Assembly: GCF_053078305.1 (NCBI RefSeq)
Contig: NZ_CP166879.1
DNA: 64,000 nucleotides
Reading direction: 5' to 3' (one strand)
In this document: one piece after another, positions 1,726 to 35,174 of the stretch
How positions within the stretch are numbered: the stretch's first letter is position 1
How the letters are laid out: each line of letters opens with the position of its first letter
Position numbers and translations under genes: made by a program
Notes under the pieces: model-generated
The model's input: the letters and a program-made list of their open reading frames with translations, nothing else
Database searches by the model: none
Told to the model about the DNA's origin: nothing

Positions 1726-1803
1726 ATATCTGGCCCTGCTGTCTTTGAACTGAATGCATATTTTGTTGATAAATAAAGATTATGTGTTTTTGATTTTCGT
1801 TTT

Positions 1804-1827
1804 GTATGCCTTTTTGTATGCCTTTTT
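1804..1827. repeat. Left direct repeat GTATGCCTTTTTGTATGCCTTTTT (putative att)
   Basis: Exact 24-bp copy of 10389-10412. Confidence 0.75.
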
Positions 1828-1985
1828 TGAAAAAGATACCCTTGTTGTTTGATCGTCGATAACGGGTATCAATGTGCACATGCAAATCGATGGCGTTTAT
1901 GTGTGCGCTGTCGAACGTTTGAAAATGGTTTTAGGGCGGTTTTAATGCTGGTTGATGTGGCGCTCTGTGGCGCTCGTTTTGGTGT

Positions 1986-2066
1986 GCTGGTGGCGGGGGT
2001 CGAACCCGCATACATGATCAGCCTGTACAGGCTGGCACCGACTCTACCCGTTGAGCGTACACCAGC
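1986..2066 (-). other. tRNA-like remnant (7-bp acceptor stem GCTGGTG/CACCAGC, canonical T-arm GCGGG-TTCGACC-CCCGC, aberrant anticodon arm, no CCA)
   Basis: Hand-folded from sequence; anticodon region replaced by perfect palindrome CAGCCTGTACAGGCTG. Confidence 0.45.
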
Positions 2067-2090
2067 AAAAAAGCGATGAGGTTGTTGGCT

Positions 2091-2178
2091 GCTGGTGGTG
2101 GGGGTCGAACCCACATAAACATCCCGCTTTCTGGAAGCTATACAAGCGGACGCCGCTTTACCGATTAAGAGTACACCA
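2091..2178 (-). other. Second tRNA-like remnant (T-arm GTGGG-TTCGACC-CCCAC plus CACCAGC 3' acceptor strand; 5' acceptor strand incomplete)
   Basis: Read from sequence; paralogous to 1986-2066 element. Confidence 0.35.
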
Positions 2179-2261
2179 TACAGCCAGGTAAAATAGTAAT
2201 CATGCGTTATGTGCGGGTAAAGTCTGTTTCGTCTGGTAGCACCAGATGAACGGGTATCATT

Positions 2262-2330
2262 ATTTCACCTGATTTCACGTGATTTCGCTTAATTTCACAA
2301 AAATCACCTTCTTTCACCTTCTTTCACAAA
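2262..2330. repeat. Array of six TTTCAC(C) direct repeats (iteron-like, crr-like)
   Basis: TTTCAC at 2264, 2274, 2294, 2313, 2323 plus degenerate copies; resembles P4 type I iteron TGTTCACC. Confidence 0.5.
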
Positions 2331-2461
2331 AAACAAATCATCATTAAAGCGCCTGATTCGCTCTCTGATGCGTTTTGGTGTTTTTGTGGCGTCCGTGATG
2401 CCCTGAAAGGGGATTTTTGCGATAGCGGCGCAAATATAACGGTTGCTGCTGGTATCTGTGG

Positions 2462-2869
2462 TTAGTCTTGCGTGATTTTATTGGCGTGCTTCTTTCTCAG
2501 TCGTCGTATGATGTCGTAAATATGGGTTTCGGATATTGCGTACTCTTTGCGTAATGCCTGCAATTTTTCGCCGTTATCCCACCTGTAGTAAATCTCGTAT
2601 TCGCGCAATGCTGCGAAAAGTGATCTGCCTGTTGGAAGGTAAAGACTTCGCCCACCAGCATAGAAGGCGATTGCAGCGACAACCCGCTTTGCGATTCTGA
2701 AAGCGTCTGCCTCCTCCATGCCATTACGGGTAAGTTCCGCTACTGAATGCGACACGATATCAGCAAGCGAATCACACCATGCATCACCTGGTTTATCTCC
2801 GTTGTCTATGGCGTCGATGAATTTAAGCCGCTCGATGTCTTTTGGTACGTGATGGGTTTGCTCGTTCAT
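2462..2869 (-). CDS. Mor-family-like transcriptional activator
   Basis: 135-aa ORF; C-terminal ...LYLPTGRSL...ISETHIYDIIRR pattern resembles Mor/C-type HTH domain. Confidence 0.55.
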   Translation of the reverse strand: MNEQTHHVPKDIERLKFIDAIDNGDKPGDAWCDSLADIVSHSVAELTRNGMEEADAFRIAKRVVAAIAFYAGGRSLYLPTGRSLFAALREYEIYYRWDNGEKLQALRKEYAISETHIYDIIRRLRKKHANKITQD

Positions 2870-2982
2870 CCGGTAGCCTCTTGCGTTGGTGTATCTGGTC
2901 CTACCAGTTTAATTTAACGTCGCAATAAAACGATATACACGCACACAATCAGAAAAGCCGTCTGACTGTTCCGGTCCCGTGC

Positions 2983-3255
2983 TTACTTCTGGTAGCTACG
3001 CCAGATTTTTTTACATCTCCCTCCTATCCCCATTTCTGCGTAAGTGCGGTTTACTGCTTTCCTCAGGTCTGCGTAGTTCTCCTCTGGCGGCTCCGGTGGC
3101 CTCTGTGCCTTCCCGTAACATTCTGCCCTGCGCATTGCCACCCGTTCGCGTTCCCTGTCAGTCTCCACCAGCATCATCACTTCAGCCCATCGCGCCGCCG
3201 CTCTCCGGTAAAAGCCCTTCGCCTCCAGCTCTTCCGCTATGCTGTCATGTACCAT
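2983..3255 (-). CDS. PerC-family transcriptional regulator-like protein
   Basis: 90-aa ORF with AEELEAKGFYRRAAARWAEVM motif typical of PerC/Pch proteins of prophage-like elements. Confidence 0.6.
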   Translation of the reverse strand: MVHDSIAEELEAKGFYRRAAARWAEVMMLVETDRERERVAMRRAECYGKAQRPPEPPEENYADLRKAVNRTYAEMGIGGRCKKIWRSYQK

Positions 3256-3265
3256 CGTTCACCCC

Positions 3266-3676
3266 TCAGAACGGAATATTGTCACCGTAAGGGTCATCGC
3301 CTCCCACTGGTGGCTGATTACCCTGTGTGCCTGTGGTCCTGCGTCTGTTGCCACCTGGTCGCGCCGTTTTCGCACTGATTACGCTGTCTGCAATGACCTG
3401 ATAACCCTGCCGCGTTTCCCCGTTCTGTCCGGTCCACTGACTGACCTGCATCACACCGGATACGCTGATTACGTTGCCTTTCTCATGTCCTGCCAGTTGG
3501 TCGGCCTGTTTGCCAAATGCCAGGACAGACAGCCATAACGTTGCCTGCCCGTCCTGCGCCTGACTGCATGGCAGCGATACCGCCATACGTGCCAGCGTCA
3601 TCGGTGTGCCCTTACTGGTCTGTTTTGTCTGCGGGTCGTCAATCAGTCGCCCGTAAGCTGCTATCTGCGCTGTCAT
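3266..3676 (-). CDS. Single-stranded DNA-binding protein-like (OB-fold, acidic ...DDPYGDNIPF tail)
   Basis: 136-aa ORF; glycine-rich linker and C-terminal acidic tip ending IPF as in SSB. Confidence 0.55.
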   Translation of the reverse strand: MTAQIAAYGRLIDDPQTKQTSKGTPMTLARMAVSLPCSQAQDGQATLWLSVLAFGKQADQLAGHEKGNVISVSGVMQVSQWTGQNGETRQGYQVIADSVISAKTARPGGNRRRTTGTQGNQPPVGGDDPYGDNIPF

Positions 3677-3777
3677 GATTCCACCTCTCCGGTTTTAACG
3701 TTGATGGTTGTTACCTGTTCCGCTTCTGCAATCTCCCGCTCTGTCAGCGTGGTAAAGTTTGCCGCTGCTGTGCTCAT
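3673..3777 (-). CDS. Small ORF (34 aa, MSTAAANFTTLTEREIAEAEQVTTINVKTGEVES) translationally coupled to ssb-like gene (ATGA overlap)
   Basis: Hand-translated; not in ORF track because below length cutoff. Confidence 0.3.
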   Translation of the reverse strand: MSTAAANFTTLTEREIAEAEQVTTINVKTGEVES

Positions 3778-3915
3778 GAATGCACTTATCAGCCAGGGGG
3801 CTTTCGCGTGTCTTTCTGCCGTGTTGTGGCCCTTCGTTCATGAGCAAAACACTTAAATAAAACTAAAGTGATTTTCTGTGTTTTCGTGCTGCTCTGCTCT
3901 GTGTTTTTTTGCCGT

Positions 3916-4130
3916 TTACTCACCACTACTCACTTTTTTTACTCACTTTTTGGAATCGCTCACTTCGTCTCACCTGAGATTTTTGGTGTTTTTATGTGTG
4001 TGTTTTATAAGTGGTTTTTTACTACTCACTTTTTTGCCTATATACAGGTGAGAAAGTGAGTAATTTTGTTAATTTTTTGTAAAATTACTCACTTTACTCA
4101 CTTTTGCTCCTCACTTTTTTACAGCGGTAC
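3916..4130. repeat. Iteron array: at least 8 copies of ACTCACTTT (one inverted), AT-rich; candidate replication origin
   Basis: Repeats read directly (e.g. TACTCACCACTACTCACTTTTTTTACTCACTTTTT; AAAGTGAGTA inverted copy); immediately 3' of replication helicase gene. Confidence 0.6.
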
Positions 4131-5516
4131 TACGTCATCGCCGTCAATGCGTATAGTCTCGTCTTTCTCCAGTTTTGCTAACCATCGCCGCATGTTTTTC
4201 ACGTCATACCCAAGCCGTTTCATGTCGTCGCGCAACAACGAAATAGTGCACTTGTCGCCGTGCTGTGTGCGTGACCGGATGCAGCCCCATAGCGCGGTAT
4301 GGTTTTCCGTCTTGTTGCCAGCCTCCTCGATGCGCTCCACTTCAACGGGATGACGCGGCTTATCCACCACAACCAGAGACGTGATTAACTCCCCGTCAGC
4401 GTCGGTAAAAAGCTCAACTACCCGCAAATCGTAGGCAGCTTCTTTGAGTTCCTCTGCGTCCTTCATTTTGGTACATGAGATAACCAGCGCTTCGCTTCCT
4501 GCGTCCTCCCTGCGTATCCGGTATTCAGCATCCAGTGATGCACGAAATGCACTGGAACCACGCGCCCCCTTTGTTTCATCCTTGCCGGAATGGTGAACCA
4601 CCAGCACCGTTGCCCCTGTGCGCCGTTTCAGTTCGTCACACCCACGGATAAACGCCCCCATATCACGGGAATCATTTTCATCATTGCCACCAAAGCAACG
4701 CGCCAGCGTATCCAGAATAATCATGCGTACAGGTTTACCCGTTTCCCGTTCCACCTGGCGGGCAGCGATAACCATTTCATCAACATCAAGCGGGGCAGCC
4801 GGAAAGATGGGGCGGTTTACCAGATACAGATTTTTCACCTGCTCACCGTGCACAACCTCCCAGGCTTTTACACGACGCGGAACGCCGATACCGCCTTCAC
4901 CAACCACATAGAGAACAGCGCCATGCGCCACCCTGCGGCCTCCCCACTGGCGGCCCGTGGAAACGTGACACGCCCACGAACCCGCAAGGAACGATTTATA
5001 GGAACCGCTCGCCCCGTATATGCTGCACAGCGATACCGCCGGAATAATCCCCTTAACCACGTAATCCAGTTGCGTGTCATATCCGGCAGAACCAACGCTC
5101 ATCGGTAGCTTTGTTTTGCGCTGGTGGCCTTTTTCTTCCTGCTTTTCCCCGCGCTCCCGTTCCAGATATTCGCGCCAGTTCTCCCGCTTCTGGCTGTGCA
5201 TCCCATCGGGGTAGTAATTCGCATCCTGTACGCCTGCCGCTGCCAGTTTTTGCGCGATGGCATTAATATTTGATGGTCTGATATGGCTTGCTTTGTACAG
5301 CCGGACGCAATAGCGCCCCTCGTCAATGATTTTCGTGTCTGCCAGTTCTGCCAGTTGCTGCTCCCCAAGCCATACAGGTGGCACATTATCGCCAGCAAGT
5401 CGGCCCTCCTGCTCCTGCCACTGCTTCGCGTGTGCCCAGGCATCACTACCCACAAAAATAATGACCTCGGTCATTTTGTCGTAAGGCTGTTTTTTTAAGT
5501 TCGGTGCGCTTTTCAT
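4119..5516 (-). CDS. Replication initiator/helicase (RecA-fold, AAA_25/RepA-like; P4 alpha-like role)
   Basis: 465-aa ORF; Walker A GASGSYKS, Walker B MIILDTLARCF...; C-terminal putative DNA-binding region; adjacent iterons. Confidence 0.8.
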   Translation of the reverse strand: MKSAPNLKKQPYDKMTEVIIFVGSDAWAHAKQWQEQEGRLAGDNVPPVWLGEQQLAELADTKIIDEGRYCVRLYKASHIRPSNINAIAQKLAAAGVQDANYYPDGMHSQKRENWREYLERERGEKQEEKGHQRKTKLPMSVGSAGYDTQLDYVVKGIIPAVSLCSIYGASGSYKSFLAGSWACHVSTGRQWGGRRVAHGAVLYVVGEGGIGVPRRVKAWEVVHGEQVKNLYLVNRPIFPAAPLDVDEMVIAARQVERETGKPVRMIILDTLARCFGGNDENDSRDMGAFIRGCDELKRRTGATVLVVHHSGKDETKGARGSSAFRASLDAEYRIRREDAGSEALVISCTKMKDAEELKEAAYDLRVVELFTDADGELITSLVVVDKPRHPVEVERIEEAGNKTENHTALWGCIRSRTQHGDKCTISLLRDDMKRLGYDVKNMRRWLAKLEKDETIRIDGDDVVPL

Positions 5517-5812
5517 TTCTTACCCCTGAATGCGTTAATCATCTTTTTCATCTTCTGTATTTTTGCCAGTGCCTTTACGTTGCTGGTGGGCACGTTACGC
5601 GGTACCGCCTGCACCAGAGAAAAATCACGGGAAAACTGATAAACAGGCATCACGCAGTCATATTCGTAGCCTTTACGGCGGTAGGTGACGCACCGCCCCG
5701 CCACGCCCTTAATCATTACCGTGCCGCCGTACTGGTCGCGGTAAATATCACCGCGCTTAAATTCAGGGCGAGGCTTGCCGCTGGCAGTTAAGCCAGTTTT
5801 TTTCATGTTCAT
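5513..5812 (-). CDS. Hypothetical small basic protein
   Basis: 99-aa ORF, stop overlaps helicase start (ATGA); no family recognised with confidence. Confidence 0.45.
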   Translation of the reverse strand: MNMKKTGLTASGKPRPEFKRGDIYRDQYGGTVMIKGVAGRCVTYRRKGYEYDCVMPVYQFSRDFSLVQAVPRNVPTSNVKALAKIQKMKKMINAFRGKK

Positions 5813-5885
5813 TTTTTTATCCTTTGTTCTGGTCAGTTACGCCGTTGCTGCATAAATGCGGTTAGCGGTGCCTGTCGTTGCCTTA

Positions 5886-6200
5886 TCACGAATGGCGATA
5901 ATCAGCACTGATATCTCCGTTACGACAACGCCAGTTGTACACCTCCACAACCTCACTGAATCCGGCCACAAGTTCAGCCGTAACAGCGATGGAATCGCCC
6001 AGGCTGCGCAGTTCGTCCATGTCAGGATCAATGCTGTCACTCATGCCAGAAAGTAAGCGCCCTGTGATAGCCAGCCCTTCAAGCAGTTTGCGGGCGTAGA
6101 AATCAGCATCATCAAACATCGCTCTCGCTTCCCGTGCGTCAGCTGCTTTTATGGTTGTAACCAGTTGTTCAAGTATTCTGGTGTTACACACATCACGCAT
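5886..6200 (-). CDS. Hypothetical protein
   Basis: 104-aa ORF in co-oriented gene train; no recognisable motifs. Confidence 0.45.
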   Translation of the reverse strand: MRDVCNTRILEQLVTTIKAADAREARAMFDDADFYARKLLEGLAITGRLLSGMSDSIDPDMDELRSLGDSIAVTAELVAGFSEVVEVYNWRCRNGDISADYRHS

Positions 6201-6363
6201 GACTCACCCCCTCACGAATAAGGGTGACAAAAATCAGATGGGTGTGCGGAAGTTGTGCGCGTGCTTCGTGCTCAGTGGCAGCGGTAACGGTGAATATTGC
6301 AATGCTGCCTGTCAGGCACTGCATAAAGCGCCAGACAAAGTAAGGGCGTGCGGATACAGCCAT
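6193..6363 (-). CDS. Icd-like small protein, copy C (56 aa; MAVSARPYFVWRFMQC...)
   Basis: Internal Met of ORF 6193..6687 preceded by strong SD (AGGAG, ~8-nt spacer); conserved C-terminal block shared by three tandem copies. Confidence 0.5.
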   Translation of the reverse strand: MAVSARPYFVWRFMQCLTGSIAIFTVTAATEHEARAQLPHTHLIFVTLIREGVSHA

Positions 6364-6649
6364 GTGAAAGGCTCCTATGTTTGAGGTAAGGAGTCTCGCT
6401 ACTACGCTGCTAAACATGGTGGCGAGACGTAACAGGGTTAGCAGACTGGCAACATAGAAACCAGCGAGCGCAAAGGCTCCCCCGTTACGCCCCGCCATAA
6501 TGCGGGTATGGGTAGGTTTACGGACACAAAAAAACCGCATATCGGAATGTAAGCGGCTGTCCGCTATGTTATTCAGGCTGCTAAACCCGGTCGCCATGTG
6601 GGTGACTCCGGCATCATACAGCCCGAAAGAAGAGGCGATCAACATGTTT

Positions 6650-6820
6650 TTATCCATGTGATGCCTCCTGACGGATACGGGCGACAAAAATCAGATGTGC
6701 GTGCGGCAGCCGGGCGCGTGCTTCGTGCTCAGTGGCAGCGGTAACGGTGAATACATCGATGTTACTGTGGTGGCACTGCATAAAGCGCCAGACAAAGTAA
6801 GGGCGTGCGAATACAGCCAT
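6650..6820 (-). CDS. Icd-like small protein, copy B (56 aa; MAVFARPYFVWRFMQC...)
   Basis: As copy C; SD AGGAG upstream of internal ATG at 6820. Confidence 0.5.
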   Translation of the reverse strand: MAVFARPYFVWRFMQCHHSNIDVFTVTAATEHEARARLPHAHLIFVARIRQEASHG

Positions 6821-7106
6821 GTGAAAGGCTCCTGTAGTGAAATTAAGGAGTCTCGCTACTACGCTGTCAAACATGGTGGCGAGACGTAACAGGGTTGACA
6901 GACTGGCACTACAGGAACCAGCGAGCGCAAAGGCTCCCCCGTTACGCCCCGCCATAATGCGGGTATGGGTAGGCTTACGGACACAAAAAAACCGCATATC
7001 GGAATGTAAGCGGCTGTCCGCTGTAGTATTCAGGCTGTCAAACCCGGTCGCCATGTGGACGACTCCGGCATCATACAGCCCGAAAGAAGAGGCGATCAAC
7101 ATGTTT

Positions 7107-7295
7107 TTAAGCATGACTCACCCCCTGACGAATACGGGCGGCGAATACAGCGACACAACCGGACGGGCAACGGTTACGCGCTTCGCGTTCCGTCCAGGCG
7201 GTTACGTGGATGATTTGACGTTCTGACGTGCCAAAGGTGATAAAGCGCCAGATAAAGGCGGTTTGAGAATGTACGAGGGCAGGGGTAGTAGCCAT
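7107..7295 (-). CDS. Icd-like small protein, diverged copy A (62 aa; MATTPALVHSQTAFIWRF...)
   Basis: SD AGGAGG upstream of ATG at 7295; C-terminus ...TEREARNRCPSG...ARIRQGVSHA homologous to copies B/C. Confidence 0.45.
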   Translation of the reverse strand: MATTPALVHSQTAFIWRFITFGTSERQIIHVTAWTEREARNRCPSGCVAVFAARIRQGVSHA

Positions 7296-7825
7296 GATGG
7301 CAGCCTCCTTTATCGTTGGGATATACCCACCGCTGGAGGTTCCAATCTCGCTGGCGGTGGACTGCACGGAGTTGGAACTACTGGCGATAAAGGAAACCAG
7401 CCTGACCGAAGTCAGCCCCATACAGCCCACCATTGATAAGGTGTGCGTGTGCGCCGATACAAAAAAAGACGCGTTCGGCGTCTGTATCGCCTTTATCTCC
7501 AGCGGGGTTCCAATCCCGACACCCGTTTTATGAGGTGCGCGGGAATCATAGCCATTTTTGATACTGGCGATCAACTGATTTTCTCTGGCGGGTATTTGGC
7601 GCGGATGCCTGTTACCTGTGGCAATATACACACGACTGTATACAATACACATCGGTTAACTCCTTATATTCCGTTGATGGCCCGTAGTGTTATTGCATTG
7701 CGGGTATTTTTTACCTGCCGTTAATTGAATGCGGCAAGGCATCACGACGGTTAACCCGTTTTGCATAACGTGAGGCGTTTTATTTTCTGCGCTGGTGGCT
7801 TTTATATTTCACATATGGGAATTTA

Positions 7826-8029
7826 TTATTCCTGCTGATAACGCTCCTCTACTTTCTTCTCAAGCCATGATTTCACCTCATCCTCAAACCAGCCAACGCG
7901 GCGTAATCCACGCTTAAAACCAGGAATAAATTCACCAGCCTTAACCATTGTGTCAATGCTCGTTGTACTAAGGCGAAGAAGATTTGCGACTTCTCGTTTT
8001 GTAAGGATTTTCTTTTCTGTAATGTTCAT
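7826..8029 (-). CDS. alpA: AlpA-family phage transcriptional regulator (HTH)
   Basis: 67-aa ORF, LTKREVANLLRLSTTSIDTMVKAGEFIP HTH typical of AlpA/prophage CP4-57 regulator family. Confidence 0.8.
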   Translation of the reverse strand: MNITEKKILTKREVANLLRLSTTSIDTMVKAGEFIPGFKRGLRRVGWFEDEVKSWLEKKVEERYQQE

Positions 8030-8121
8030 ACTTTGCGTTCCTTTTGTTTCAGGCGCTAACTTGCCTAAACTTGTTCAAGGATATGCAAACACGGTAAAAG
8101 CTGGCATTGCGGAATATTACG

Positions 8122-8145
8122 AAAAAAGCCCGTAATATTACGGGC
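8122..8145 (-). terminator. Rho-independent terminator after int-cargo unit
   Basis: Hairpin GCCCGTAATATTACGGGC followed on minus strand by U6. Confidence 0.65.
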
Positions 8146-8166
8146 GGTCATATGTTCAGAAGTCTG

Positions 8167-9063
8167 TCAGTCGTCAACGTCTGCAAGCCACTTACCTATG
8201 CATGTTGGTGTGGCACCGATATCAACGCCTGCTTTGGTTAGTGCGCGGCTTAACTTGCTGTGACCGTTTTCAAGCGCCCTTCGTGGGTTTGACGCCTCTT
8301 CTTCTCCGGCTATAGCGGTGATTAGTCTTTTGATAACTCTGGCCTGAAGATTGGTTGTTTTCTTTGATGGGGGTGGTTTATTGATGTTTAATTCATCCAT
8401 GTTTTCAATAGAAGCGGTACGCCCTCCGTTTATGGCTAAATCTATCTCACTTCTGGAAATAAAAATATCGTTACGTGATATATCCCATCCCTGTAATAAA
8501 ATCGCAGCTTTAAAATCATCCTCGTCATCGTTATCGATTATCTGAATGTATTTAGTATTTGTTGTATCGTGAAATGATAATCTTTCAATGTCTGCGCTGT
8601 TAGCCTTTACATTAAGCAATCCATCAGCTTTAACATATATTTCTTTTGCGGGTGTTATTATTTGTGCGTTTTTTATCTCTGGCTCATCTTCAGCAAAAAT
8701 ATTCATGCTGAAATAATCACCATATGATGAGTAATGATAGTTTATGTTGAGTCCTGCATGTGCATAATAAAAAACATCTATTGGAGTGAGTAGCTTATTT
8801 ATAGATGTGGCATCAATGATTACATTGCAATATTCATTTGTGTAATGCTGGTATAATGTTTTATTAGCACTGATAAGCTCAGGCTTTACCCCTTCATAAT
8901 ACTTTAATGTCAGTTTTTCATTTATATTAATGCGATACAAAAAACGCATCCTCCTCGTAGCGATGAAATGAAGCAAATCATCAACGTCACACTCAAGCCT
9001 TCTGGCTGCCTTGTCTAACGGGTAATAATCCCTTTCAGGAAGGTTTATTTTTTTGTTTGCCAT
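8167..9063 (-). CDS. Hypothetical protein, low-GC cargo (possible N-terminal excisionase-like HTH); function unknown
   Basis: 298-aa ORF 4 bp downstream of integrase stop; markedly AT-rich (about one third GC by eye) versus flanking genes; N/I/D-rich; followed by terminator. Confidence 0.6.
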   Translation of the reverse strand: MANKKINLPERDYYPLDKAARRLECDVDDLLHFIATRRMRFLYRININEKLTLKYYEGVKPELISANKTLYQHYTNEYCNVIIDATSINKLLTPIDVFYYAHAGLNINYHYSSYGDYFSMNIFAEDEPEIKNAQIITPAKEIYVKADGLLNVKANSADIERLSFHDTTNTKYIQIIDNDDEDDFKAAILLQGWDISRNDIFISRSEIDLAINGGRTASIENMDELNINKPPPSKKTTNLQARVIKRLITAIAGEEEASNPRRALENGHSKLSRALTKAGVDIGATPTCIGKWLADVDD

Positions 9064-9067
9064 GCCC

Positions 9068-10348
9068 TTAACCGTTAACCATTTTTAACCCACGATAGCC
9101 ACCCGTGGCGCTTACGCTCCCGCTGGCAGCTGCCTCTACAAAATCCCCCCACCACGCCATTAACGGGCGTCGCTGCTCGAGATAGGTTGAGCGGTTGTAC
9201 GCACGGCGAACCTCGTTTTTATCTATGTGTGACAATGCCGCCTCGATTACGTCAGAGTCAAAACCTTGCTCGTTAAGTGCGGTACTTGCTATTGAGCGCA
9301 AGCCATGAGCAACCAGCCGCCCACTAAAACCCATGCGTTTTATTGCTGCGTTTGCTGTTTGTACGCACATATGGCGCTGCGGGTCGCTGTTGTGTGGAAA
9401 TATAAACTCACGATGCCCGCTTATTGGCTTCATGACGTCCAGAATGGCTAACGCCTGCTTCGAGAGTGGTATTACGTGTTCCCTGCGTTGTTTAAGTCTG
9501 TGCTCTGGTATGCGCCATTCCTTCACCTCAAAATCAATTTCACACCAGCGCGCGCCAGCTGCTTCACCTGGTCGGCAAATTGTCAGTAGCTGCCACTCAA
9601 TGACCAGCCGCGTTTGTCGTTCCACCCGTGCCGTTGCCAGCTTCTGCATAAATTCGGGGAGTTCTTCAGGGCGTATTGCTGGCATGTTCTTAACGCTTGG
9701 CGCGTTAAATGCCTTGCTTATCTCTGATGCCGGATTCGCGGCAATCATTCCGGTATTAACGGCGTAATACATGACCTCATTGATTCGCTGTGCTGTCCTT
9801 CTGACGGTATCTAATTTCCCCTGGGCGGCTAATGGTTTTAATGCTTCGATGAAATTGCTTGCTATCAGGTCTGCTATTGGCCTGTTACCGACTGACGGGA
9901 ATACATTACGCTCCAGCGAACGCCATATATCGCGTAGTGTATCTTCTGCGAGTCCTTGCCCTTTTTTAAGTTCAAACCAGAGCGTAGCTACATGCCTGAA
10001 GGTGTTCTCTCTCTTCATCACTTCACTAAGGCGCTGTTTCTCTCTGTGCTCTTTTGGGTCAATGCCACCAGAAAGAAGCGCTCTGTATTCGTCTTTTATC
10101 TTTCGCGCGCCCGCAATGCTGATTTCTGGATATGCGCCAATGCTTAACATGGCCCGTTTTTTTGTGTGTGGCTTGTAGTAGCGGTAACGCCACAAGCAAG
10201 AGGCGCTTTTGTGCTTAATCACCAGTTCCAGCCCTTCGCCGTCAGTGATGAAAAGGTCCTTTTTTTCGTTGCTGGCTTTTCGCTGGAGGCTTTTTATCGT
10301 TGCGGGTGATAAAGACTTAACTTTTTTGGTCACCGGTTCAACTCCCAT
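9068..10348 (-). CDS. int: Tyrosine site-specific integrase, P4-type
   Basis: 426-aa ORF; catalytic tail ...AHGLRSIASTAL...RAYNRSTY; adjacent to tRNA and att repeat. Confidence 0.9.
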   Translation of the reverse strand: MGVEPVTKKVKSLSPATIKSLQRKASNEKKDLFITDGEGLELVIKHKSASCLWRYRYYKPHTKKRAMLSIGAYPEISIAGARKIKDEYRALLSGGIDPKEHREKQRLSEVMKRENTFRHVATLWFELKKGQGLAEDTLRDIWRSLERNVFPSVGNRPIADLIASNFIEALKPLAAQGKLDTVRRTAQRINEVMYYAVNTGMIAANPASEISKAFNAPSVKNMPAIRPEELPEFMQKLATARVERQTRLVIEWQLLTICRPGEAAGARWCEIDFEVKEWRIPEHRLKQRREHVIPLSKQALAILDVMKPISGHREFIFPHNSDPQRHMCVQTANAAIKRMGFSGRLVAHGLRSIASTALNEQGFDSDVIEAALSHIDKNEVRRAYNRSTYLEQRRPLMAWWGDFVEAAASGSVSATGGYRGLKMVNG

Positions 10349-10388
10349 AAGCTGTTAAAGGCATATGCAAATCTGTGTTTTTTCCGGC

Positions 10389-10412
10389 GTATGCCTTTTT
10401 GTATGCCTTTTT
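10389..10412. repeat. Right direct repeat GTATGCCTTTTTGTATGCCTTTTT (putative att)
   Basis: Exact 24-bp copy of 1804-1827, 41 bp upstream of int start. Confidence 0.75.
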
Positions 10413-10454
10413 AATCTTGCTTATACGCTATCAAACTGGCCCAAACTGAACAAT

Positions 10455-10484
10455 AAAAAACCCGCGTTCCTTGTCTGGCGCGGG
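10455..10484 (-). terminator. Rho-independent terminator of ileX
   Basis: Hairpin CCCGCG...CGCGGG followed by U6 on minus strand, ~50 bp 3' of tRNA. Confidence 0.7.
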
Positions 10485-10531
10485 TTTGCTTTGTTTAACT
10501 TGCCGTAACTTGTCTTTACTTGGTGTCGATT

Positions 10532-10607
10532 TGGTGGCCCCTGCTGGACTTGAACCAGCGACCAAGCGATTATGAGTCGCCTGCTCTAACCACTGAGCTA
10601 AGGGGCC
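10532..10607 (-). tRNA. ileX: tRNA-Ile2 (anticodon CAU, lysidine-modified), 76 nt with encoded CCA
   Basis: Reverse complement reads GGCCCCTTAGCTCAGTGGTTAGAGCAGGCGACTCATAATCGCTTGGTCGCTGGTTCAAGTCCAGCAGGGGCCACCA; cloverleaf and CAT anticodon. Confidence 0.9.
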
Positions 10608-10731: not shown

Positions 10732-11238
10732 ATGGTTGAGGATATTTTGGCTCCAGGGTTACGGGTCGTGTTTTGCGGTATCAACCCTGGGCTTTCATCC
10801 GCCGGGACTGGTTTTCCCTTTGCTCATCCGGCAAATCGCTTCTGGAAGGTGATATATCAGGCCGGGTTTACCGACCGTCAGTTGAAGCCGCAGGAGGCAC
10901 AGCATCTGCTGGATTATCGTTGTGGCGTCACCAAACTGGTAGACCGTCCAACGGTGCAAGCCAATGAAATTTCAAAGCAAGAGCTACACGCAGGTGGGCG
11001 TAAGCTGATTGAAAAAATTGAAGATTATCAGCCGCAAGCGTTGGCGATTCTGGGTAAACAAGCATATGAACAGGGATTCAGCCAGCGCGGTGCACAGTGG
11101 GGGAAACAAACGCTCAGCATTGGTTCGACGCAGATTTGGGTGCTGCCAAATCCCAGTGGTTTAAGTCGCGTTTCACTGGAGAAACTGGTTGAAGCGTATC
11201 GCGAGCTGGACCAGGCGCTGGTGGTGCGTGGGCGATAA
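10732..11238 (+). CDS. mug: G/U mismatch-specific DNA glycosylase
   Basis: 168-aa ORF with GINPGL motif; matches E. coli Mug. Confidence 0.9.
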
Positions 11239-11240
11239 AA

Positions 11241-11263
11241 AACGCCACCGAAAAGGTGGCGTT
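11241..11263. terminator. Bidirectional hairpin between mug and rpoD
   Basis: AACGCCACC-GAAAA-GGTGGCGTT flanked by A-run and T-rich tract. Confidence 0.5.
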
Positions 11264-11280
11264 TGTGCAAAGGGACAGGT

Positions 11281-11313
11281 GCCGGGTGCGGCGTAACGCC
11301 TGATCCGGCCTAC
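11281..11313. repeat. REP-like palindromic element downstream of rpoD
   Basis: GCCGGGTGCGGCGTAACGCCTGATCCGGCCTAC. Confidence 0.5.
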
Positions 11314-22935: not shown

Positions 22936-23065
22936 GCGTAGGCCGAATAAGGCGTTCACGCCGCATCCGGCAATCAACGCCTGATGCGACGCTTGCGCGT
23001 CTTATCAGGCCTACAACTGTCGTTGACGTGTAGCCGGATAAGGCGTTTACGCCGCATCCGGCAAA
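22936..23065. repeat. BIME: cluster of three REP palindromes between uppP and cca
   Basis: TAGGCCGAATAAGGCGTTCACGCCGCATCCGGCA / GCCTGATGCGACGCTTGCGCGTCTTATCAGGC / GTAGCCGGATAAGGCGTTTACGCCGCATCCGGCA. Confidence 0.8.
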
Positions 23066-30886: not shown

Positions 30887-30965
30887 CCGGAAAGCGGTTC
30901 ACAGATCTCGCTTCGTACATGGCAGGCCTATTGACGCTGTTGTTTTTTCAACCTAGAGTAAAGGA

Positions 30966-31108
30966 ACAAGGGTAAGGGAGGATTTCTCCCCCCTCTGATG
31001 AGTTGTTAGTAAGTCGGGAAACTTAACAGTAACAACACAACCAGTATGATGACGAGCTTCATCATAACCCTTTCCTTCTATAAGGCCCCTTCCTCGGGAG
31101 GGGCTTTC
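30966..31108 (+). ncRNA. sibD: Sib-type antisense sRNA (antitoxin of ibsD); coordinates approximate
   Basis: Sigma70-like promoter TTGACG-17-TAGAGT at 30931-30959; transcript covers ibsD antisense; terminator hairpin GGCCCCTTCCTCGGGAGGGGC near 31083-31103. Confidence 0.6.
31006..31065 (-). CDS. ibsD: Type I toxin Ibs, 19 aa (MMKLVIILVVLLLLSFPTY)
   Basis: Hand-translated from reverse complement; hydrophobic 19-mer identical in form to E. coli Ibs toxins; missed by ORF track. Confidence 0.8.
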   Translation of the reverse strand: MMKLVIILVVLLLLSFPTY

Positions 31109-31341
31109 CCGTTTCAGCCCCTTGCTGACTCCCCGATTGTTGATGAGCGCCGGACCCCGCGCAACGCTTTCCCTGAAGCAGTTTTGCCTTCCCCGAGCGG
31201 TCACGCAAAACGCTGCAACGTCCTGAGCATTTGCACCTTTTAGCGGAACGCAGATATAAAAAATCCCCGGCTTTTTGGGCCAGGGATATGCGTTAATGAA
31301 ACCTTCTTGACGCTGATTTTTTTTCAACCTAAAGTAAAGGA

Positions 31342-31483
31342 ACAAGGGTGAGGGAGGATTTCTCCCCCTCTGATTGGCTGTTAATAAGCTGCGAAACTTA
31401 CGAGTAACAACACAATCAGTATGATGACGAGCTTCATCATAACCCTTTCCTTATACAAGGCCCCTTCTTCGGGAGGGGCTTTC
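31342..31483 (+). ncRNA. sibE: Sib-type antisense sRNA, second tandem copy; coordinates approximate
   Basis: Promoter TTGACG-17-TAAAGT at 31307-31335; tandem ~375-bp duplicate of sibD unit. Confidence 0.6.
31381..31440 (-). CDS. ibsE: Type I toxin Ibs, 19 aa (MMKLVIILIVLLLVSFAAY)
   Basis: Hand-translated; second copy in tandem repeat. Confidence 0.8.
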   Translation of the reverse strand: MMKLVIILIVLLLVSFAAY

Positions 31484-34920: not shown

Positions 34921-35174
34921 GCTTATTCTCAGGGCGGGGCGAAATTCCCCACCGGCGGTAAATCAACTCAGTTGAAAGCCCGCGAGCGCTTTGGGTGCGA
35001 ACTCAAAGGACAGCAGATCCGGTGTAATTCCGGGGCCGACGGTTAGAGTCCGGATGGGAGAGAGTAACGATTCTGTCGGGCATGGACCCGCTCACGTTAT
35101 TTTGGCTATATGCCGCCACTCCTAAGACTGCCCTGATTCTGGTAACCATAATTTTAGTGAGGTTTTTTTTTACC
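34921..35174 (+). ncRNA. FMN riboswitch (RFN element) leader of ribB
   Basis: Conserved aptamer AGGGCGGGGCGAAATTCCCCACCGGCGGTAAATCAACTCAGTTGAAAGCCCGCGAGCGCTTTGGGTGCGAACTCAAAGGACAGCAGATCCGGTGTAATTCCGGGGCCGACGGTTAGAGTCCGGATGGGAGAGAGTAACG upstream of ribB. Confidence 0.85.

Follow-up and report, generated by a model that had tools for sequence, protein, structure and literature searches.

The 64,000-nt stretch of contig NZ_CP166879.1 (NCBI RefSeq assembly GCF_053078305.1; the whole stretch is hereafter the window) carries a recently mobile phage satellite of the phage-inducible chromosomal island (PICI) type, ~8.8 kb long, in the 3′ end of the tRNA gene ileX. The new part of this element is a Mu-related end module set on a backbone of a known PICI kind. 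As a whole, we favour, with a probability of about 0.6, a PICI-type satellite that has integrase arm repeats within its ends, is controlled by C4 antisense-RNA immunity and exploits a Mu-like prophage of the Sp18 type as its helper.

Element borders, the ileX target and the 24-bp repeats

The borders were drawn by comparison with an empty site and with copies at a second chromosomal location, inside mdtP. In the K-12-like empty site (L002), where mug, ileX and yqjH (nfeF) are contiguous, as the preliminary description of this DNA had stated for K-12, the nfeF terminator (...cagcctttgctatatc) is joined directly to the ileX 3′ end TGGTGGCCCCTGCTGGAC, and the sequence corresponding to 1742–10537 is absent. 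In the window, TGG-CCCTGCTG-TCTTTGAACTGAATG comes after that terminator instead; the left end of the element (1742) begins TCTTTGAACTGAATGCAT, and its right end (10537) terminates in TCGATTTGGTGG and so supplies the last bases of ileX. The ends are unchanged in the mdtP insertions (L003, L004, L156 and L160), the left starting TCTTTGAACTGAAT and the right stopping at ...CGATTTGGTGGCCC. Since the ends are the same at ileX and mdtP and the empty site lacks 1742–10537, this interval, oriented on the minus strand, represents the element-specific DNA. The features that define its termini are as follows.

1734..1741, no strand assigned: attL core copy CCCTGCTG, a displaced repeat of the ileX 3′ end in degenerate form (judged against the empty site L002 and the mdtP junctions)
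1804..1827, plus strand: distal-arm tandem 12-mers (GTATGCCTTTTT twice), 62 bp inside the left end, candidate arm-type integrase-binding sites
10389..10412, plus strand: integrase-proximal-arm tandem 12-mers, 125 bp from the core
10458..10487, no strand assigned: terminator hairpin from the element, now downstream of ileX and absent from the empty site
10532..10607, minus strand: tRNA ileX, anticodon CAT, the attB target, with the attR core CCCCTGCTG at 10538–10546 (ARAGORN, Rfam and empty-site comparison)

The core duplicated at ileX, CCC(C)TGCTG, lies inside the tRNA, the end of which is rebuilt by the element upon insertion, when the attP core meets the tRNA 3′ end. Integrases of this type classically insert within a tRNA 3′ end. 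The attL copy is imperfect, being 4 nt (TGGC) short of the expected TGGTGGCCCCTGCTG when window positions 1731–1741 are compared with 10532–10546, and the same holds for L001. At mdtP, the duplicated core is CC(C)GGGATG, found on both junctions (L003, about 2501–2513 and 10930–10945; L004; L156; L160), with the left junction differing by 1–2 nt among genomes, and the site resembles the T-arm region of ileX (...TTGAAC..GCGAC). Judging from the junction sequences, the occurrence of the mdtP-type core on both sides suggests a sub-lineage whose attP overlap has come to match the secondary site. The element qualifies as a tRNA-targeting tyrosine-integrase island, with a core at the tRNA 3′ end, an integrase carrying an arm-binding domain and repeated sites on both putative attP arms.

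The preliminary description had proposed an 8.6-kb element bounded by a 24-bp att duplication and had placed the insertion about 120 bp 3′ of the tRNA, leaving ileX and its terminator intact. The repeats themselves are as described: GTATGCCTTTTTGTATGCCTTTTT is exact at 1804–1827 and 10389–10412, occurs only there in the 64-kb window (0 expected from shuffles) and flanks all the element genes. Nor is it a frequent motif, with 8 matches in 241 million metagenome records, namely the same element once and unrelated coding tandem repeats seven times. As insertion borders, however, the repeats fail on several counts. The K-12-like empty site lacks the 72 bp and 125 bp that separate the repeats from the host flanks, and with them the terminator at 10458–10487, which had been assigned to ileX but is element DNA. 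An empty site with a single 24-mer, as the proposal predicts, was found in 0 of 5426 complete E. coli genomes, all of which align to no more than about 74% of it. Furthermore, both 24-mers are internal in the mdtP copies, where the outer 62-bp and 125-bp segments move along with the element, and the same internal tandem-repeat layout recurs with other integrases. Placing the borders at the 24-mers is hence scarcely credible.

Each 24-mer consists of two tandem copies of GTATGCCTTTTT, and an inverted, degenerate copy of the 12-mer is present at 10355–10366. In the reconstructed attP, the 24-mers flank the core in direct orientation, the int-side copy 125 bp away and the opposite one 62 bp away. 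Islands with other integrases are similarly organized: L006 has two copies of TATGTACAC adjoining int and two on the distal arm; L152 has two copies of CGTATAACTAAA adjoining int, together with inverted copies, and a single copy on the distal arm; and L153 has two copies of ATTAACTACACC adjoining int, on the int-side arm examined. Because the integrase possesses an N-terminal arm-DNA-binding domain and the same layout, with different sequences, accompanies other integrases, the 24-mers are probably arm-type integrase sites located inside the element, not its borders. More generally, an island may carry perfect direct repeats close to its two ends that are not att sites.

A PICI backbone with triplicated antisense-RNA immunity

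The element genes are all on the minus strand, and every ORF (open reading frame) is intact. The backbone comprises the following features.

9068..10348, minus strand: P4-type tyrosine integrase (NF007246, 527.7 bits; Arm-DNA-bind_3, Phage_int_M and Phage_integrase domains)
8167..9063, minus strand: 298-aa protein without assigned function, between int and alpA
7826..8029, minus strand: AlpA-type regulator or excisionase (phrog_66, 4.7e-12; same position in relatives)
6193..7652, minus strand: three tandem immunity units, each with a promoter-like site, a1/b1 targets, C4 RNA, a2/b2 targets and an Icd-like ORF
5886–6200, minus strand: 104-aa protein without assigned function
5513–5812, minus strand: DUF4222 protein
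4119..5516, minus strand: RepA-family helicase, with AAA_25 as its only domain
3920..4120, no strand assigned: replication origin with iterons (TACTCACTTT, seven direct copies at 3921–4120, plus inverted arms)
3266..3676, minus strand: single-stranded DNA-binding protein (SSB; TIGR00621, 55.2 bits against a cut-off of 53.95; phrog_44)
2983..3255, minus strand: PerC-family regulator, a backbone gene common in Gram-negative PICIs (PMC11773190)

The genes are ordered in zones, beginning with int, an accessory gene and alpA and continuing through the Ash/Icd zone, where the immunity RNAs lie, and the replication genes to a final zone, a layout that matches the four-zone plan described for Gram-negative PICIs (PMC10111431). 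The DUF4222-RepA-SSB-PerC block shares 85–88% DNA identity with islands located at other sites, of which L152 has a prohead protease/major capsid fusion in its final zone, as in a classical PICI, and L153 has a full head and terminase set, as in a capsid-forming PICI (cfPICI). We conclude that the element is a Gram-negative PICI-type satellite and not a P4 derivative. The PICI core set of the SatelliteFinder scheme has five components (PMC10085698), among which the integrase and the AlpA/MerR/Stl-type regulator adjoining int are present. The candidate for the primase-replicase component is the AAA_25 RepA helicase with iterons, a module common to the PICI with capsid genes and the cfPICI. Capsid morphogenesis and the small terminase or packaging redirection are missing. 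With three of the five components, the element would be assigned to 'Type C' by the criteria of the scheme. A validated, helper-mobilized PICI, EcCIMP1, is also of Type C and equally devoid of capsid and terS genes (PMC11773190). The capsid, portal, connector and terL genes that define cfPICIs are present in L153 but not here, and of the seven components of P4-like satellites only int and alpA were found, with no psu, delta, sid, epsilon or alpha.

Compared with Gram-negative PICIs (EcCICFT073, EcCIEDL933, EcCIMP1) and cfPICIs, the element shares the zone order, PerC and SSB, the lack of lysis and tail genes and the size range (9–20 kb), but its late zone carries Mor, two tRNA-like genes and a repeat cluster instead of capsid, protease, terS or Rpp-type genes; it also has three immunity units, and its candidate helper is a transposable Mu-like phage. 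With P4 it has in common a tyrosine integrase of the same type acting at a tRNA 3′ end with arm repeats, an AlpA/Vis-type regulator and C4/CI antisense-RNA immunity embedded in an Ash/Eta-like ORF. By analogy, the homolog of a helper late activator, here Mor, might correspond to P4 Delta in its relation to P2 Ogr. Unlike P4, the element lacks Sid, Psu, Delta, Epsilon, the Alpha primase-helicase and cos, and replication relies on the AAA_25 RepA helicase.

This comparison bears on the preliminary description, which had seen a satellite or cryptic integrative element with a P4-like replication and immunity backbone and an atypical gene set. Its gene list (int, alpA, three Icd-like units, helicase, iterons, SSB, PerC and Mor, all on the minus strand) is supported by profile matches, and, as it had stated, no capsid, terminase, Sid, Psu or Delta match was obtained for any ORF in PHROG, Pfam or NCBIfam. 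A small, mobile, satellite-like element beside ileX, without structural genes, is indeed what we found. The P4 resemblance holds for the immunity, which is of the P4/P1 RNA type, but not for replication, which belongs to the RepA module of PICIs and cfPICIs, and the gene set is atypical only in the last 1.1 kb, the remainder being PICI backbone. Two tRNA-like genes (tl1 and tl2) and three C4 antisense RNAs had escaped notice.

The C4 RNAs were identified with Rfam at 7350–7437, 6872–6959 and 6415–6502 (72–78 bits against a gathering score of 45), each preceded by an isrK/a1b1-like segment and by a promoter-like TTGATC-18-TATGAT. All three Icd-like ORFs match NF033153, and unit 1 additionally contains an Ash domain. 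The loop and 3′ single-stranded elements of the C4 RNAs differ from unit to unit, and their complementarity of 7–10 nt is confined to targets of the same unit, at about −82/−68 and +89/+121, the downstream one overlapping the ribosome-binding site of the Icd-like ORF. A recent duplication gave rise to units 2 and 3, which differ mainly in these paired elements. All constituents of a C4/CI antisense-RNA system, that is, C4 RNA, upstream and downstream targets and the Icd-like ORF, are therefore in place, and the immunity, as predicted from these pairings, is the logic of P1 c4-icd and P4 cI repeated three times with three specificities. In the immI region of P1 and P7 (c4-icd-ant), a′/b′ of the C4 RNA likewise pair with a1/b1 and a2/b2, and b2 covers the icd ribosome-binding site; the present element differs in having no ant downstream and in the triplication of the unit.

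The replication module is exchangeable among relatives. The same flanks and tail, the latter being the SSB-PerC-Mor-tRNA-like end of the element, occur with three replicases, namely RepA (here), D5_N/DUF5906 (L156) and Toprim plus DUF927 (L006), and the same tail is associated with two integrase types. In L006, L154 and L156, unrelated replicases occupy the place of window 4119–5516 between the same flanking modules, which amounts to replicase swapping. The 298-aa protein yielded no Pfam, PHROG, NCBIfam or PADLOC match, and its AlphaFold model has a mean confidence (pLDDT) of 50.7. Only about 10 homologs were found, and their alignment shows a near-invariant N terminus (residues 1–45, helix-turn-helix-like) and C terminus (235–298) around a hypervariable middle, and a non-homologous protein at the same position in L006 has the same N-terminal motif. 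The protein could be a sensor, a repressor or a defence gene product.

The Mu-related end module

Beyond perC, the final zone consists of four features.

2462..2869, minus strand: Mor-family late transcription activator (phrog_532, 2.7e-28; PF08765 precomputed for the 99%-identical homolog P0011)
2250..2340, minus strand: GTGAAA/AGGTGA repeat cluster, like nt 34–90 of the Sp18-like Mu left end, a candidate packaging (pac) site or end mimic
2090..2184, minus strand: tRNA-like RNA gene tl2 (tRNA-OTHER in relatives; type-2 homolog)
1985..2066, minus strand: tRNA-like RNA gene tl1 (the equivalent in relatives annotated as tRNA-Tyr by PGAP; type-1 homolog; central hairpin loop of 6 nt)

Against the Rfam tRNA model, tl1 scores 35 bits and tl2 20.6 bits, and a promoter-like TTTACC-17-TACTAT was recognized by eye upstream of tl2. 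tl1 shares 86% identity over 73 nt with a gene annotated as tRNA-OTHER in Sp18-like Mu prophages of O157:H7, where it sits, on the opposite strand, between the genes for head morphogenesis (gpF-like) and virion morphogenesis (gpG-like). Using the T-arm pattern as a probe, we located a tRNA-like gene at the gpF-gpG boundary in every one of the 19 Mu-like viral contigs found (for example, L005 5996–6075 and L007 23755–23834; also L008–L031), including divergent phages with gpF only 73% identical, and the gene is preceded by a conserved TAAAAT. The central hairpin divides the phage genes into two allelic types, and the satellite holds one tRNA-like gene per phage type, with three in some relatives. 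Their acceptor, D and T arms covary, with compensatory changes in 5 of 16 pairs and 91.9% of cells paired, compared with 35–59% in slid controls. Because ARAGORN, which called ileX, called neither tl1 nor tl2, and because the central arms have loops of 4–6 nt or long variable hairpins in place of the canonical 7-nt anticodon loop, these are tRNA-like RNAs and not decoding tRNAs. The analysis reveals a conserved tRNA-like RNA gene in Mu-like phages, of which we found no description; our searches likewise retrieved no description of a satellite carrying Mor or tRNA-like genes. The possibility that the tRNA-like genes act as attB mimics for the integrase was rejected, since by eye their T-arm and acceptor sequences are unlike the ileX core. 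Separately, two Stx-converting phage records hold an inserted Mu-like phage with the tRNA-like gene, and in O157:H7 strain ECP19-798 (L007, 4624–6072) a sulfatase-like gene is interrupted by an Sp18-like Mu prophage.

Over 116 aa, the satellite Mor shares 47% identity with the Mor-family late activator of the Sp18-like type, and no close relative of it turned up in viral contigs. No other part of the window matches the first 96 nt of the Mu-like left end as well as the repeat cluster does, with 19 of 21 nt identical at end nt 35–55 (blastn-short, E = 0.068). The gapped score of the cluster, 34, compares with a maximum of 27 in 5079 control windows of the same size and was reached by 1 of 2000 shuffles (P about 5e-4). 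In six Mu-like contigs, conservation of the left end stops after ~95 nt and the sequences then diverge; five further Mu-like left ends were obtained with the 16-mer GTGAAAGRAGGTGAAA, a probe that we abandoned as too unspecific (>120 mostly unrelated matches in viral contigs). Mu packaging begins at the left end (PMC5557969). A comparison of Mu-like and satellite intergenic regions for shared promoter or activator motifs returned chance-level 10–11-mers only, and the whole element matched phage records solely through the 73-nt tRNA-like segment, inside Mu-like inserts. Recent insertion of a Mu fragment was dismissed as the origin of the module, with Mor just 47% identical and neither MuA nor any other Mu-like protein detected in the element by tblastn.

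Distribution, candidate helper and rival explanations

The full element is present in 7 of 5426 complete E. coli genomes. Its copies occupy two chromosomal sites, ileX and the interior of mdtP (STEC17-183, JNEC-KY203, a draft assembly and a metagenome contig), with both sites filled in one genome, and the element is for this reason demonstrably mobile. The satellite Mor cluster was found on 506 contigs, all named E. coli. Most carriers are related Shiga toxin-producing (STEC) and bovine E. coli.

Co-occurrence with Mu-like prophages was scanned using chimeric queries and a cargo-only control, with MuA and gpT as markers. Sp18-like MuA is present in OkiPb01678, OkiPb01685, OkiPb01712 and STEC2018-607, and both MuA and gpT are present in JNEC-KY203. 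Both markers also occur in 6 of 6 genomes with another island that has a different integrase, a Toprim/DUF927 replicase and a different site (dinD-yicC) but the same tail, whereas none of the 4 control genomes with that same integrase and cargo but without the tail has a Mu-like prophage. Altogether, 11 of 13 tail-bearing genomes contain a Mu-like prophage, compared with about 232 of 5426 (about 4%) overall (Fisher test, P = 5e-14). For the helper-induced excision, replication and packaging by which a PICI is functionally defined, the two insertion sites and this co-occurrence are indirect evidence.

An Sp18-like Mu prophage as the helper is a well-motivated hypothesis to which we give slightly less than even odds. 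A Mu-family myovirus is already known to mobilize PICIs in Pasteurella multocida (PmCI172 and PmCI86; PMC6092414), a precedent from another host family, with helper use supported experimentally there but only predicted for our element. In the mechanism that we propose, the P4-type integrase recombined the attP core CCC(C)TGCTG with the ileX 3′ end, whereby the element rebuilds the end of the tRNA and adds a terminator. In the integrated state, the three C4/CI-type RNAs would pair with their own targets and block read-through into the replication genes. Upon induction, AlpA is predicted to drive excision, after which replication of the circle by the RepA helicase would start at the iterons. Mor might then switch on, or respond to, the late genes of the helper, as P4 Delta does with P2, while the repeat cluster could direct headful packaging of satellite concatemers by the Mu-like machinery. 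The helper may also be affected by the tRNA-like RNAs, which could pair with the gpF-gpG junction as antisense or imitate the phage RNA. Packaging of concatemers would use full-size heads, as in the minimalist satellites of Vibrionaceae (PICMI); PICMIs resemble the present element in the small gene set and the lack of capsid-remodelling genes, but have unrelated genes and hosts and use virulent helper phages. A stronger version, which we regard as rather doubtful, is that this is the first E. coli satellite of a transposable Mu-like phage of the Sp18 type, in which the capsid module has been swapped for a 1.1-kb 'Mu kit' composed of a Mor transactivator that, functionally like P4 Delta, turns on the late genes of a resident Mu-like prophage, a mimic of the left-end packaging site and a tRNA-like array, each RNA of which matches one allelic type of the phage RNA gene and which tunes or sabotages head morphogenesis of the helper.

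Several observations weigh against a mobile satellite of an Sp18-like Mu helper. No terS, capsid-remodelling or other packaging gene is identifiable in the element, and the similarity to the Mu end, at 19 of 21 nt plus small blocks, is short; moreover, the position of the Mu pac site, which we take to be at about nt 32–54, enters the comparison as an assumption. Two tail-bearing genomes depart from the pattern, with Sp18-like MuA absent from JNEC-KY179 and neither MuA nor gpT in STEC17-183. The co-occurrence is also confounded by the STEC/bovine lineage of the carriers, and a lineage-collapsed test with an assumed background of 35% gives P = 0.056. At the termini, we infer the binding of the integrase to the 12-mers from sequence, and the 4-nt gap in attL means that the ileX copy may excise poorly or be locked in place. 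Finally, the junction pattern of an excised circle (...CGATTTGGTGGCCC(C)TGCTGTCTTTGAACTGAAT...) was not found in viral or metagenome contigs.

The end module could instead be cargo directed against Mu. On this account, a PICI-type satellite is mobilized by a lambdoid or P22-like helper, and its Mor, tRNA-like genes and repeats interfere with, or defend against, Mu-like phages as a decoy activator, decoy or antisense RNAs and a decoy end. Close relatives of the backbone do use HK97-type capsid modules, phage interference is common among satellites, the tRNA-like RNAs are antisense to the gpF-gpG junction of the helper, and the co-occurrence of the tail with Mu-like prophages fits defence against, or regulation of, a resident prophage equally well. 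What makes this account unlikely is that no packaging determinant for any other type of helper was detected, that the tail occupies the exact position of the helper-derived late genes in relatives, and that a homolog of the helper late activator is unneeded for pure defence. An immobile PICI remnant in decay, stripped of its late module and passed on vertically at ileX, would account for the imperfect attL core, the missing packaging genes, the rarity of the element (7 of 5426 complete genomes) and the lack of a circular junction in public contigs. It is quite improbable given that all ORFs are intact, that two chromosomal sites are used and both are occupied in one genome, that the 9-bp core matches at the mdtP junctions, that the tail is found on three replicase backbones and with two integrase types, and that the Mor cluster is spread over 506 contigs. 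There is very little room for an integrative mobilizable element or plasmid-like replicon transferred by conjugation: the iterons and the RepA-family helicase form an autonomous replication module, related modules of which occur in a few plasmid records, but the architecture is that of a PICI, the PHROG, Pfam and NCBIfam scans gave no relaxase, oriT or coupling-protein match, and in the whole-element search plasmid records matched pieces of the replication module only.

As a PICI-type satellite, the element provides a concrete case for the large 'Type C' grey zone of PICI-like islands without recognizable packaging genes. If the link to a Mu-like helper is true, a swap of ~1 kb would suffice to retarget a satellite to a very different helper, a transposable, headful-packaging myovirus. 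In the STEC and bovine strains that carry the element, Mu-like prophages and PerC-family regulators are relevant to prophage traffic and to the regulation of virulence.

Elsewhere in the window, naRNA4 (REP-type) matches flank the region at 729–804, 11236–11310 and 22941–23011, of which only the last reaches the gathering score. Two Sib antitoxin RNAs and an FMN riboswitch (30931–31080, 31307–31455 and 34921–35069) represent ordinary chromosomal content.

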